Origin: Acidobacteriota bacterium
Lineage (GTDB): Bacteria > Acidobacteriota > UBA6911
Reading direction: 5' to 3'
NCBI GenBank assembly: GCA_963664705.1
Contig: OY761556.1
Coordinates: 4,128,001 to 4,192,000 of the forward strand
Length of the DNA: 64,000 nucleotides
Part shown: piece after piece, positions 13,181 to 49,360 of the stretch
Layout of the letters: every line of letters starts with the position of its first letter
Numbering within the stretch: position 1 is the stretch's first letter
Position numbers and translations under genes: made by a program
The notes under the pieces: model-generated
Database searches by the model: none
What the model saw: the letters and a program-made list of their open reading frames with translations, nothing else
What the model was told of the DNA's origin: nothing

Positions 13181-13374
13181 CCCCGGGCTCGCAAACTCGC
13201 CCGGAGCTACTATCTTTCGCGCCTCCGGCGCTGGATCTTTGTTCCATCTATATACTAAGCACCGGAACCGCGCCTCATCCAGCCCCGGCAGGGGCGATCA
13301 GAAAGTAGCCAGGGGTGAGCGGAGCGAACCCCTGGTAGAGGAGCGAAAAAATTGGAGCCCTGAAGGGGCGAAAG
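13181..13374. repeat. Cluster of GTAG-type REP-like palindromes
   Basis: 13281-13374: agccccggcaggggcg-N-GTAGCCAGGGGTGAGCGGAGCGAACCCCTGG…agccctgaaggggcgaaag; a diverged inverted unit at about 13181-13233; related copies at 47479-47544/49085-49110 and 49266-49360. Confidence 0.85.
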
Positions 13375-45979: not shown

Positions 45980-47413
45980 ATGAAAAGTCATTTTTGGGGC
46001 GCCACGGGGCTGGCATGTCTATTGGCGGCGAGAGCAGTTGCCGCTTCCGAACCGGTTTGGCCGCAGTTTCGAGGGCCGGAAGCAAATCCGGTCAGCAAGG
46101 AAGCACGGCTGGCGGACAACTGGGGGAAGACGAAAAACATTGACTGGGCAGCGGAGATTCCCGGGCGTGGATGGTCGTCGCCCATCGTTGCAGGCGAAAG
46201 AGTCTTTGTTACAACCGCAATTACGGAAGGCACATCGAAACCGCCGCAGATCGGAACGGAATATAGCAACGAGTATGCGGCTGAATTGGAGAAGCAGGGG
46301 CTCACAGAAGCGCAGGTCCTCGAGAAATTGACGGCCCGGGATATTGAACTCCCCAAGGAAGTAGTGCTGCACTATTTTCTATATTGCCTGAACTTGAAGT
46401 CAGGGAAAGTGGAGTGGAAACAGGAATTTCATACGGGAAGGCCACCGGGCGGAAGACACCGCAAAAACAGCTTCGTCTCGGAAACACCGGTAACGGATGG
46501 CAAAGCAGTTTATGTCTATGTTGCAAACCTCGGGCTATACGCATTTGATTTGAAGGGAAAAAGCCTGTGGAAGGCCCCGCAGGAGGCGCTGCCAATCTAT
46601 CTGGATTTCGGAACAGGAAGTTCTCCAGTACTGGCGGGGAATCTGGTGGTCATCGTCAACGACAATGAAAAACAGCCCTTCATCGCAGCCTACGACAAGA
46701 AGACAGGCAAGGAAGTCTGGAAAAAGAACAGGGATGTGAGAGCGAAAGGACCCACGCCGGCGCGTTCGGGGTGGGTGACGCCCTATGTATGGCGGCATGC
46801 TGACCGGACCGAAATAGTCACCGTGGGACCGAGCAAAGCGATCAGCTACGATCTGACGGGGAAGGAGTTGTGGATACTGACCGGAATGTCGGGAGGGCCC
46901 ATCCCTATGCCGTACGCTTACGACGGCCTGCTGTATCTGAACGGGGGGCGGGAACGGCCCCTGTTTGCGATTCGTCCGGGAGCGGATGGCGACATATCGT
47001 TGAAAGAGGGGGAGCGAGCAAACAAATATGTGGTTTGGTCCGAGCCGCGCGGTGGAACGTACCTGCCTACGGCTGTGGCTTATGAAGGCGCGCTTTACTC
47101 GATAACCGAAACCGGAATTCTGAGCCGGTATGAAGCAAAAACCGGAAAAACAACCTACCGAACACGGATTGATCCGGCGGCAACAGCGTTCACCGCTTCG
47201 CCTTGGGCTTATAACGGCAAGATCTTTTTCCTGGACGAAGAGGGGCAGACTTACGTGGTGGCCGCAGGAGATAAGTTTGAGTTAAAGCAAACGAATCTGC
47301 TGGAAGATATGGCACTGGCAACACCGGCAATCGCCGGGGATCGGCTGCTGCTGCGAACCGAGCACCGGCTGTATTCGATTCGCCAGGCAACTTCGGGGAC
47401 TCCGGGCAAATAA
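45980..47413 (+). CDS. Secreted PQQ-binding-like beta-propeller protein (start uncertain)
   Basis: WPQFRGP, PGRGWSSPIV, TPVTDG, FGTGSSP, ATPAI…LLLRT. Confidence 0.9.
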   Translation: MKSHFWGATGLACLLAARAVAASEPVWPQFRGPEANPVSKEARLADNWGKTKNIDWAAEIPGRGWSSPIVAGERVFVTTAITEGTSKPPQIGTEYSNEYAAELEKQGLTEAQVLEKLTARDIELPKEVVLHYFLYCLNLKSGKVEWKQEFHTGRPPGGRHRKNSFVSETPVTDGKAVYVYVANLGLYAFDLKGKSLWKAPQEALPIYLDFGTGSSPVLAGNLVVIVNDNEKQPFIAAYDKKTGKEVWKKNRDVRAKGPTPARSGWVTPYVWRHADRTEIVTVGPSKAISYDLTGKELWILTGMSGGPIPMPYAYDGLLYLNGGRERPLFAIRPGADGDISLKEGERANKYVVWSEPRGGTYLPTAVAYEGALYSITETGILSRYEAKTGKTTYRTRIDPAATAFTASPWAYNGKIFFLDEEGQTYVVAAGDKFELKQTNLLEDMALATPAIAGDRLLLRTEHRLYSIRQATSGTPGK

Positions 47414-47478
47414 GTCCTCCTCGCACGGGAGCGCTGGCGTCGCGCCCAATGTCATTTACTTTTTTTCGGACATTTTTC

Positions 47479-47544
47479 TTTCGCCCTTCGGGGCTTGTTA
47501 CGGGTCTATTCCAATCCAGGGTTCGCTTCGCTTCACCCCTGGCT
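47479..47544. repeat. Left part of the REP-like element interrupted by the IS110
   Basis: tttcgcccttcggggct…ccagggttcgcttcgcttcacccctggCT; it resumes as CTacttgctttcggccctccggggg at 49085. Confidence 0.85.
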
Positions 47545-47659
47545 GATATGGAGTGATCGGTCAAGTACAATCAATCCGTTCCTTGTTCGTTCATTTTGGT
47601 TTTCTTCGGTTCATAAATAAATCAGCCAGTAAAAAGAACAGGGGATCGAGTTGGCAACA

Positions 47660-47790
47660 GCGACGATAATCAATCTGATATTCGCGGGTCGATAAGCACG
47701 CATGACAACTGATTCATCGGGAGCGGCCTCACTCTACTTCCGTGGATTCTGGTTTCCCATACCAACATAGCCAGGTCGAGGTTTCTCCTT
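47660..47790 (-). ncRNA. Predicted bridge/seek RNA core (target- and donor-binding loops); true transcript ends unknown
   Basis: Two stem/internal-loop/hairpin modules. Loop sequences CCUGGCUA and AAGUAG match the REP target; AUAUCAGA matches the circle junction. Confidence 0.8.
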
Positions 47791-47890
47791 TCGAAGCCTG
47801 GAACTCGATCTCCTGTTCCGTTCACTAACCGAATGTTTCCGTTATTAATCCATTGAAGAACAAAATAGCTGCAAGAGCTGGTGCCTTATG

Positions 47891-48985
47891 TCATGCAACA
47901 CGACCGATAGCCCAGATAAATCCTGCCAATTCTCGACTTACCGCAACCGCGATCTTTTGTCTTTCTTTCCCTCGGTTGAGCATGCGTCGGAATTTTTGAT
48001 TCAATCGCTTATCGCAACGTTGTGCAATCTCGATAACTTCTGCCGGCAAACACTCTCGTCGTTTCTTGAGAGTTTTGCCAGCTACTGAAGAATGACGGTA
48101 GTGCCAGGCGCTTTCGATCAGCACCCTACGTAGGTGGCTGTTTCCCGTTTTGGTTATCCTTCCCCGTCTTTCAAGTTCACCTGAGCTGCTTTCCGAAGGC
48201 ACCACCCCAATAGCGGCCATAAACGAAGGCGCATCGACGAACCGTCTTAAATCGAGCGCTTCTGCGATAATCGTCATCGCCGTCAGAACCTGAACACCTT
48301 TTAGCGCCATCAAATAGCTGACTCGCTTTTGATAGTTCGGCTGTTTTGCAACTTCCTCGATTTTTCCCTGGAATGTTTTCAACCGCTCCGTCTGTTGCTC
48401 AAGCGCCTGTCGATATTCCTCCAGTACTGTTTGATCCCCATCATCCTCAAACACAAGGCTCTTAATCCACTTTAGGTGCCCAAGCGACCAGTTCTTGCCC
48501 TGCGGATATTTCAATCCACGTCGCATCAGAAACCGTGCTAATCGATGCCGTGCTCGCTGCTGGTCTTCCAATGCGTCTTCTCGCGCACGCACCAGATCTC
48601 GCAGACTTTCCTGTTCTTTTTGCGGGATCACAATACATGTTAGTTCTCCCGCTCGGTACAATTTGCCCAAGGCTTTCGCATCCAGCTTATCCGTTTTTAC
48701 TTTTTTCCCCGCTCGTCTCGGAGTCAACGAAGGGGCCGCAACCTCACAAGAAATCCCATGTTTGGCCAAATAGCGCTGCAAATAGTATCCATTAACGCCC
48801 GCTTCGTAGACGCACCGTACGTCATCTTCAAATGCCCTTAGCTTTTTCGCTAACCGACCCAGCCCCGTACTGTCGTTTGATACAACAAGTTCTTCTCGAG
48901 GGTTACTTTCCTGCCCGCGAAAAATTGCGACGTTTATCTTTTTTGCTGAATCATCCATCCCTACCCAAGTGATACAATCTGCCAT
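47891..48985 (-). CDS. IS110-family DEDD recombinase/transposase
   Basis: VGMD, YEAG, KTDKLDA (DEDD), G.VPSE.SSG (Tnp serine region), ITKTGN.HLRR.L.ESAW, AVSRELAGF; GAGGAG RBS. Confidence 0.96.
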   Translation of the reverse strand: MADCITWVGMDDSAKKINVAIFRGQESNPREELVVSNDSTGLGRLAKKLRAFEDDVRCVYEAGVNGYYLQRYLAKHGISCEVAAPSLTPRRAGKKVKTDKLDAKALGKLYRAGELTCIVIPQKEQESLRDLVRAREDALEDQQRARHRLARFLMRRGLKYPQGKNWSLGHLKWIKSLVFEDDGDQTVLEEYRQALEQQTERLKTFQGKIEEVAKQPNYQKRVSYLMALKGVQVLTAMTIIAEALDLRRFVDAPSFMAAIGVVPSESSSGELERRGRITKTGNSHLRRVLIESAWHYRHSSVAGKTLKKRRECLPAEVIEIAQRCDKRLNQKFRRMLNRGKERQKIAVAVSRELAGFIWAIGRVA

Positions 48986-49265
48986 GATCGGTCTCCTCAT
49001 GTTTTATGGCTCTGCAGCTTCGTCACCACGACTTCAGCTGTAACCCACGATATTACATGCTAGAGACCGATCACTCCATTATGTCTACTTGCTTTCGGCC
49101 CTCCGGGGGTGGTGCCTCGCTCGCGTCGCAGAGCTCAGAACAATTATGCGCAGCAGTGCAGCACAATCCGCACCCGGAGCCCTCAACGGTTACGACCCTT
49201 TTGGGAAATGCGCGCTGGAAGCACCACCGTCCCGGCTGATGCTGCATACCATTTTGCAATCAAAT

Positions 49266-49360
49266 CAGCGCCGGAGGCGCGGCAGATTGTAGCCAGGGGT
49301 GAGCGCAGCGAACCCCTGGAATAAGATCAGGAAAGACGGAGCCCCGGGCAGGGGCGAAAG
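49266..49360. repeat. Intact GTAG-type REP-like element
   Basis: cagcgccggaggcgcg-N-GTAGCCAGGGGTGAGCGCAGCGAACCCCTGG…agccccgggcaggggcgaaag, near-identical core to 13305-13335. Confidence 0.88.

Follow-up and report, generated by a model that had tools for sequence, protein, structure and literature searches.

The DNA considered here, a window of 64,000 nucleotides from an Acidobacteriota bacterium (GCA_963664705.1, contig OY761556.1, positions 4,128,001 to 4,192,000), carries an insertion sequence (IS) of the IS110 family that is 1542 bp long when one copy of its CT core is counted in. The element is most probably a complete IS1111-type member of this family in which a conserved RNA with two loops, encoded in the non-coding region 3' of the gene, is predicted to direct the DEDD recombinase to the landing site. 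The gene of this recombinase is the sole long reading frame of the element. Among related elements, the loop letters of the RNA change together with the flanking DNA and with the tips of the element, as expected for guides. From sequence comparison, we infer that the element is intact and naturally programmed, as an earlier sequence-only reading of this DNA had proposed; its expression, RNA processing, circle formation and activity are presumed by analogy with the characterized relatives IS621, ISEc11, ISPa11 and ISKpn4.

The genome is available as a single contig of 6.89 Mb and contains 11 full copies of the element at 99-100% identity, plus one 93-bp remnant. Between the window copy and the other copies, 0-16 of the 1542 positions differ, and the stretch encoding the predicted RNA has no differences among all 11. 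The recombinase reading frame is open in 10 of the 11 copies. An in-frame TAG is found in the copy at contig positions 4951646-4953187 (T to A at element position 919; RNA region unchanged). Matches to PF01548 and to the RNA model R1 described below number 11 each in the genome, and all correspond to the 11 elements. The perfect 15-bp inverted repeats lie 3 nt (recombinase 3' end) and 5 nt (recombinase 5' end) inside their respective CT copies, and the non-coding sequence measures 346 nt after the recombinase stop and 99 nt ahead of the ATG at 48985. The spacing of the repeats, previously proposed from the window alone, is confirmed by the coordinates, and the IS1111 layout, with repeats placed sub-terminally and the longer non-coding part 3' of the gene, stands. 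The remnant, at contig positions 4126127-4126219 and about 1.8 kb before the window start, consists of the recombinase-5' end inside another copy of the repeat that surrounds most insertions. Its repeat arm ends in ..cttcacc and meets the element at CCTCATG.., with a few letters common to both, which looks like the outcome of a ~1450-bp deletion or an aberrant recombination.

The 3' regions of the window element and its four closest relatives align over about 200 nt, and the fold of the 351-nt non-coding region is more stable than that of shuffled sequences (z = -3.46; 0 of 100 shuffles as good). Read on the minus strand, the RNA at 47788-47720 has the layout GGAG-AAA-CCUC, loop GACCUGGCUAU, G..hairpin..C, loop GGAAGUAGAGU, GAGG-CCG-CUCC, and is followed at 47719-47664 by CGAU-G-AAUCAG, loop UUGUCAU, GCG..CGC, loop GAAUAUCAGA, UUGAUU-AUCG. 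RNAalifold, applied to the five closest elements, let an upstream GGCUU pair with the target guide, and the stems GGAG/CUCC and CCUC/GAGG were absent from its result. A hand-drawn structure took its place, and this structure was later supported by an alignment of 67 sequences. The covariance model R1 (134 positions, 28 pairs) was built from the same five elements with this structure and searched against 78 of 109 loci; identical own copies and duplicates (L002-L013, L016, L020-L029) as well as eight more copies of one Dehalococcoidia genome (L041-L043, L045-L047, L049, L082) were excluded.

R1 matches 67 of the 78 loci at E <= 1, 60 of them at E <= 1e-4. The matches come from many phyla and are all located on the recombinase strand, 3' of the gene. 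No R1 match was obtained in 11 of the 78 loci (L018, L019, L063, L065, L094, L096, L103, L105, L107-L109), several of which are cut at a contig end or are only 28-41% identical. In the R1 alignment (67 sequences, 59 distinct), 88.2% of the cells are paired versus 26-49% with slid partners, and compensatory changes on both sides occur at 22 of the 28 pairs; none of 500 shuffles gives values as high. Within the target-binding module, the four helices are 90-99.6% paired, and the two donor stems are 73-76% paired. The alignment was fitted to R1, a bias toward the structure, yet both the slid controls and the kinds of pairs speak for a real covariation signal. Both loops are enclosed by a long helix, P1, formed by window positions 47629-47650 and 47804-47825. 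Across 58 distinct loci, which differ in sequence, the mean P1 duplex energy is -45.8 kcal/mol versus -25.7 for mismatched flank pairs. No Rfam family fits the RNA of the element (scan of 47300-49300, E <= 1).

The frame of the target loop is fixed, with G-N6-CU-AU on the 5' side and G-N4-5-AG-A.. on the 3' side, and the letters within it follow the insertion site. The 5' arm CCUGGCU is accompanied by the flank AG-CCAGG in the window element and in L030, CUGGGCU by AG-CCCAG in L015, CUGGGCA by AG-CCCAG with one mismatch in L014, and CGGGGCU by AG-CCCCG in L017. For a count over all relatives, the 67 R1 matches were reduced to 43 loci with a recognizable sub-terminal repeat and enough flank, and to 38 after removal of identical guide-plus-flank pairs; about twenty different guide words remain among these. 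The exact match between the 5' arm and its own flank has a mean length of 6.66 nt, with at least 7 nt in 30 of the 38 loci. In mismatched guide-locus pairs, with guides differing at three or more positions, the mean drops to 3.35 nt, and 4 of 1296 reach 7 nt or more. The 3' arm follows more weakly (mean 4.61 versus 3.11 nt mismatched; at least 5 nt in 20/38 versus 39/972).

The donor loop behaves similarly with respect to the element tips. Its 3' arm follows the right tip, as AUAUCAG with ATATC-AG in the window element, AUAACAG with ATAAC-AG (L015), AUACCAG with ATACC-AG (L031, L072) and AUACAAG with ATAC-AAG (L077), with one mismatch each in L051 and L073. The short 5' arm has UGUC with a left tip AG-ACA and GGUC with AG-ACC. 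More distant relatives with the same RNA are inserted in unrelated, non-hairpin sequences that match their own loops (for example AG-CTGTAC, AG-GATGA and AG-GGGCGA). These comparisons bear out what the sequence-only reading had drawn from a single copy. The proposed two-module fold is kept in the related loci, the loop words CCUGGCU and AAGUAG are found where they had been assigned to the left target plus core and to the reverse complement of core plus right target, and the complementarity of the donor module to the predicted circle junction, including the weak UGUC, reappears as covariation with the tips. The covariance model and the loop/target comparison that it had called for support both structure and guides. 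The long closing helix and a junction promoter, described below, go beyond it.

Loop-flank matches arising by chance, together with a fold that is ordinary for a G+C-balanced stretch of 350 nt, would be the simplest alternative. Single matches of 4-7 nt are indeed common in 350 nt, and CCTGGCTA occurs 213 times in the genome, which equals the chance expectation. However, this explanation is refuted by the R1 matches, the covariation and the guide-flank counts, and R1 additionally finds the RNA in the 3' non-coding region of ISSso6, 43 nt after the gene (31.9 bits, E = 1.9e-8). Its probability is considered negligible.

The arrangement of the predicted guides along the RNA is that of the IS1111 group. 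At the plus-strand site CCTGG-CT-ACTT, the 5' arm of the RNA has the same sense as the site and the 3' arm is its reverse complement. This agrees with the rule for IS621 (PMC11208160), in which the left part of the site is read on its bottom strand by the 5' arm and the right part on its top strand by the 3' arm. Because RNA and gene are read from the other strand here, the segment complementary to the top strand comes first along the direction of the element: CCUGGCU is complementary to AGCCAGG of the element top strand and precedes AAGUAG, which is identical to that strand. According to PMC11187229 (Siddiquee et al. 2024), the top-strand-complementary segment is the 5' one in IS1111 seekRNAs and the order is reversed in IS110-type elements. 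By this comparison of sequences, the predicted guide order is the IS1111 seekRNA order and mirrors that of IS621.

In four relatives (L076, L074, L081, L083), the 5' target arm ends in GU or UU instead of CU, and the right junction is AC or AA with AG at the left. The core of the target would thus not be that of the donor, with one parent's core kept at each junction, as expected if the first strand exchange adjoins the core. As a separate observation, the letters after the core in the 3' target arm often match the left tip of the element rather than the target (CGAG-UCA with cgAG-TCA in L090; also L083), and in the window element (at 47731-47733) AG-A likewise goes with the left tip AG-ACATA. 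These letters recall the 'handshake guides' described for IS621 in PMC11208158 and PMC13626964; they are given as examples, outside any systematic count.

All 11 copies in the genome have the same immediate flanks, with CCTGG-CT (CCCGG-CT in one) before the element and A after it, so that the outcome named earlier as refuting, other copies inserted at unrelated sequences, is not observed. The CCCGG-CT site could still be paired by the guide through a U.G wobble, so that CCTGGCT or its wobble variant CCCGGCT is present at 11/11 insertion sites. After the CT, the flank continues with ACTT in 6, ACT in 8, AC in 10 and A in all 11 copies. Ten of the copies are located inside a hairpin repeat of the form ccaggggttcgctNcgctcacccctgg-ct-ac..tc..gcctccggc. 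The remaining copy (contig 2938671-2940212) lies in unrelated, non-repeat DNA that has CCTGGCTA alone in common with the other sites (flanks aaaaatacctggct and atcatgacgag). Its right junction is found as a loose end in a run coded under a different organism, and this insertion is therefore common to a second sample. Unoccupied CCCCTGGCTA sites number 46 in the genome, with a single CT each, and the best of them (..ccaggggttcgctgcgctcacccctggct^acttgctttcggccctccgggcctg) equal the two flanks of the window element joined via one CT. The insertion thus involves no target duplication beyond the shared core, and the earlier proposal that removal of the element restores an arm of a repetitive extragenic palindrome (REP) around one CT agrees with these sites.

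The repeat itself can probably be assigned to a known motif. A scan of 47300-49300 against Rfam (E <= 1) gave a single match, to Acido-Lenti-1 (RF01687), at 49267-49297 on the minus strand and outside the element (28.1 bits). Genome-wide, at least 36 matches were obtained, 12 over the curated score of 37 bits and 24 below it, with 150 of about 1448 first-look candidates scored; 14 control genomes gave none. The matches are composed of a hairpin, a GGCUAC linker and a second hairpin of the CCUCCGG type, which places the element at GGCT^AC, between the two hairpins. The occupied site has no covariance score of its own, since it is interrupted by the element, and copies with the CCCCTGG stem were judged by eye to have the same layout. 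By sequence, the "REP" at the insertion appears to be the Acido-Lenti-1 motif, which would here be repeated DNA serving as an insertion site. In 2010, Acido-Lenti-1 was listed among likely non-coding RNAs, with Acidobacteria and Lentisphaerae as its sources (Weinberg et al., PMC2864571), and a literature search on its name gave no title on insertion sequences among the matches listed. More hairpin repeats of this type are clustered to the right of the element (49087-49360), where the contig depth at 49262-49348 is far higher than in the flanks, and a further one is found at window positions 13181-13232 on the plus strand (33.9 bits).

The location between two hairpins raises the question of whether the recombinase reads the DNA hairpin itself, as hairpin-targeting transposases do, with the 3' RNA acting as a regulatory 3' untranslated region or terminator and the site matches being by-products. 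Ten of the 11 copies and the closest relatives do lie beside hairpins, and the 3' target arm is loose at several sites. In contrast, one copy resides in non-hairpin DNA, the distant relatives noted above occupy unrelated non-hairpin sites that match their own loops, and the loop letters co-vary with the flanks while the stems are conserved. Occupancy also tracks the stem variant matching the guide and not hairpins generally. Unoccupied perfect 7-bp hairpins followed by GCTA, identified by a script, have a CCCCCGG arm in 75, a CCCCTGG arm in 36 and a CCCGGGG arm in 11 cases, and the occupied hairpin sites, assigned by eye, comprise nine CCCCTGG and one CCCCCGG. This corresponds to an occupancy of 9/45 for the CCCCTGG stem versus 1/87 for other stems (Fisher p = 2.6e-4, a figure somewhat weakened because the two classes were counted by different rules). 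Direct reading of the hairpin is therefore highly improbable, and guidance by the RNA is preferred. A broader proposal, for which the chances appear about even, is that Acido-Lenti-1 is a REP-like DNA hairpin rather than an RNA gene and that a clade of IS1111-type bridge recombinases uses it for landing. In this clade, natural retargeting of the guides, by one or two letters per step, would have led to the different stem variants CCAGG, CCCAG and CCCCG, and the RNA would have a variant architecture with one long helix clamping both loops.

The recombinase contains both domains of the family, the N-terminal DEDD RuvC-like domain PF01548 (3.8e-16, 59.7 bits, cut-off 29) and the C-terminal Tnp domain PF02371 (1.2e-18, 67.7 bits, cut-off 21.3). 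An alternative upstream ATG at 49000 would extend the protein to 369 amino acids; the proteins of relatives align from residue 1 of the 364-residue form. Only two solved structures match, ISCro4 (9t56) and IS621 (8wt6), both weakly (E ~3e-6). Residues D11, D99, D102 and S268-G269 are opposite D11, D102, D105 and S241-G242 of IS621, whose catalytic residues are given as D11, E60, D102, D105 and S241 (PMC11208158). E61 is one column off IS621 E60 in the HMMER alignment, and this pairing was placed by eye. The motif G260-x-x-P263-x4-S268-G269 has the G--P----SG form of the IS110 family and reads GVVP----SG; for the IS1111 clade, GL-P----S/TG is given. Domains, DEDD and Ser-Gly residues together agree with the IS110 recombinase named in the sequence-only reading.

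Among plasmid records, the closest named recombinases are ISSso6 (38% identity over 98% of the query) and ISEc45 (36%), a distant similarity; both adjoin ISCARN28 in the source-data ordering of PMC11187229. Within the taxonomic family, a recombinase match at E <= 1e-40 is found in 6 of 50 other genomes (80, 62, 60, 56, 41 and 36% identity). Within the genus, 2 of the 28 other species searched have a match (80 and 41% identity) and none has this element. Species-representative genomes contribute 80 further loci at 28-60% identity, from Acidobacteriota, Dehalococcoidia, Planctomycetota, Bacillota and others.

The ends of the element suggest how it might be expressed and moved. In element orientation, the four closest relatives share a left end of the form flank-AG followed by ACATA-ATGGAGTGA.. 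and a right end ..TCACTCCAT-A(T/A)C followed by AG-flank; the arm ..TCACTCCAT is kept among relatives. The right end of the window element reads TTGACC-GATCACTCCATATC and its left end AG-A-CATAAT, which when joined through one core would give TTGACC-17 nt-CATAAT. TTGAC(N) adjoins the right repeat in 22 of the 23 relatives shown (TTGCAG in L083), and junction promoters have been described for the IS110 family (PMC11187229; PMC12288879). The element would be excised as a circle whose two tips are joined through a single CT (AG in element orientation), with the predicted junction ..CCATATC-AG-ACATAATGG.., and this junction would create a promoter driving the recombinase mRNA; the RNA would be released by cleavage from the 3' part of this transcript. 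The circle junction would be bound by a recombinase dimer on the donor loop, with AUAUCAG matching the right tip plus core and UGUC the core G plus left tip. The target loop would carry another dimer, bound to CCTGG-CT-A(CTT) between the two Acido-Lenti-1 hairpins, where CCUGGCU would pair with one target strand and AAGUAG with the other. Ser268 and the DEDD site would then exchange strands beside the core, leading to insertion without target duplication. A contig joint that skips 47543-49084 (two contigs from three DNA runs) was considered as a trace of excision; its shorter side has 23 letters and many paralogous empty repeats are identical, so that it is unassignable to a locus and was not used as evidence.

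Several observations weigh against a guided, active element. The 38 loci are mutually related, and the permutation figures therefore overstate their independence. The donor 5' arm spans just 4 nt and has no fit in L030, L076 and L032. The 3' target arm is poor at some sites: in the non-repeat copy A alone fits after the core, and L015 and L017 have a 3-nt match. The L014 guide is mismatched at a core position. In L089, the right flank AG-CCCCAC has only a 3-nt match to the guide GCGGUCU while the left flank fits, which may reflect a later rearrangement or an off-target event. With 364 amino acids, the recombinase is longer than the 330-350 given for IS1111 transposases in PMC11187229. A simple scan found no minus-strand promoter inside the non-coding region, promoter and terminator counts being at chance level; the proposed origin of the RNA from the recombinase mRNA is a prediction. 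The element was found in five DNA runs from two studies and in no RNA sequencing run, and neither the RNA nor the circle junction nor a transposition event was seen.

The last of these points would also fit a recently silenced relic, with real structure and guides in a family that is immobile in this genome. No circle or polymorphic site can be demonstrated, one copy carries the in-frame TAG, a 93-bp solo end remains, and 36-46 matching sites are unoccupied. Against this, the copies are nearly identical and almost all have open frames, the RNA is the same in all of them, and the catalytic residues are intact. The scarcity of recombinase matches in the genus, moreover, suggests a recent arrival or spread. 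Silencing is thus held to be very unlikely, and an intact element with a naturally programmed guide RNA is the favored reading. The features on which it rests are compiled in Table 1.

Table 1 Features of the IS110-family element and its insertion site (window positions; empty cells, no entry)
Feature	Positions	Strand	Basis or remark
Whole insertion sequence	47545..49086	-	11 copies, 99-100% identity, exactly these ends
CT core, target-side copy (AG in element orientation)	47543..47544	+	CT at both junctions in 11/11 copies
Second CT core copy	49085..49086	+	sequence; CT at both junctions in all copies
Sub-terminal inverted repeat, recombinase 3' end (right end, element orientation)	47548..47562		ATGGAGTGATCGGTC; perfect 15 bp
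Sub-terminal inverted repeat, recombinase 5' end (left end, element orientation)	49065..49079		perfect 15 bp
DEDD recombinase gene	47891..48985	-	364 amino acids from ATG 48985, AGGAGA ahead of ATG; PF01548 + PF02371
Predicted bridge/seek RNA, 197 nt	47629..47825	-	alignment of five elements, alifold P1 pairs; ~21-bp P1 helix encloses both loops
Target-binding module	47720..47788	-	two stems, 11+11-nt internal loop, capping hairpin; helices 1-4 of R1 90-99.6% paired
Donor-binding module	47664..47719	-	helices 5-7 of R1 73-96% paired
Target guide 5' arm CCUGGCU (predicted)	47769..47775	-	equals CCTGG+CT on window plus strand; would pair with opposite strand
Target guide 3' arm AAGUAG (predicted)	47734..47739	-	reverse complement of CT+ACTT; covariation among relatives weaker
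Donor guide 5' arm UGUC (predicted)	47704..47707	-	reverse complement of GACA: core G + ACA of left tip
Donor guide 3' arm AUAUCAGA (predicted)	47674..47681	-	reverse complement of joined ends T-CT-GATAT; equals right tip ATATC + AG + first left-tip base
-35 hexamer TTGACC, predicted junction promoter	47559..47564	-	17 nt from CATAAT in joined ends
-10 hexamer CATAAT, predicted junction promoter	49078..49083	-	kept in 5 closest elements
First hairpin of interrupted Acido-Lenti-1-type repeat (target, left part)	47516..47542	+	copy flanks, motif matches, empty sites
Linker + second hairpin of interrupted repeat (target, right part)	49087..49110	+	copy flanks, motif matches, empty sites

The class to which the element belongs was described in 2024 and has been mined at scale, and the element adds nothing new on mechanism. 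Bridge RNAs were predicted in 93% of ISfinder IS1111 elements (PMC11208160, 2024), and a 2026 preprint clustered 181,180 IS110-adjacent sequences. Modest additions are the Acido-Lenti-1 hairpins as a probable landing site, the guides of acidobacterial relatives apparently retargeted in nature to other stem variants, and a covariance model with RNA matches in many phyla. Bridge recombinases are under development for the insertion of large DNA and only a handful of orthologues have been studied so far; the present element offers a well-defined natural site with 11 insertion events, and its guide positions are directly readable, as the RNA is recovered by the covariance model at 67 related loci. 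A concrete role, that of an insertion site, is also proposed for Acido-Lenti-1, carried in Rfam since 2010 as a small RNA without a known function. If the hairpin-landing clade with retargeted guides is real, it would constitute a ready-made natural reprogramming series.

The closest known systems are the IS1111 seekRNA elements ISEc11, ISPa11, ISKpn4 and ISPst6. As described in PMC11187229, they share with the present element a DEDD transposase, sub-terminal repeats, a long 3' non-coding region, two RNA segments matching both target strands with the top-strand match 5' of the bottom one, a circle with a junction promoter (here predicted from the ends) and insertion without target duplication. 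For seekRNAs, trimming to a short target-loop RNA has been reported. The present target, in contrast, is an acidobacterial hairpin repeat, and the present element is known from sequence alone. Its 15-bp repeats with terminal extensions of 3 and 5 nt fall within the IS1111 range, given as 7-17 bp in PMC11208160. ISSso6 (plasmid NC_007385.1, RefSeq name) has the closest named recombinase and an R1 match 3' of its gene; it differs in its distant sequence, proteobacterial host and loop letters.

IS621, as presented in PMC11208160 (Durrant et al. 2024), PMC11208158 (Hiraizumi et al. 2024) and PDB 8wt6, similarly has two internal loops for target and donor, a CT core, DEDD and Ser residues, a longer 5' arm (7-9 nt with core) and a shorter 3' arm that read opposite strands, and a landing site in a repeated extragenic palindrome. 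Unlike in IS621, the RNA of the present element is located 3' and not 5' of the gene, the order of the sites along it is mirrored, the repeats are 15 bp and sub-terminal versus 2-3 bp, a long helix closes both loops, and the donor 5' arm has only 4 nt; the proteins align weakly (E = 3e-6). ISPpu9 of Pseudomonas putida (PMC12288879, Pares-Guillen et al. 2025) is likewise an IS110-family element with several copies in REPs and recombination at an AG dinucleotide (element orientation), and circular intermediates are reported for it. It belongs to the IS110 group without inverted repeats and is described in that paper as having a strong promoter of its own, no junction promoter and separate movable small RNA modules, whereas the 11 RNA copies found here are all inside the 11 elements. 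Acido-Lenti-1 (RF01687; PMC2864571), finally, has the same layout as the landing site; Rfam lists it as a candidate small RNA, and here it appears to be repeated DNA.

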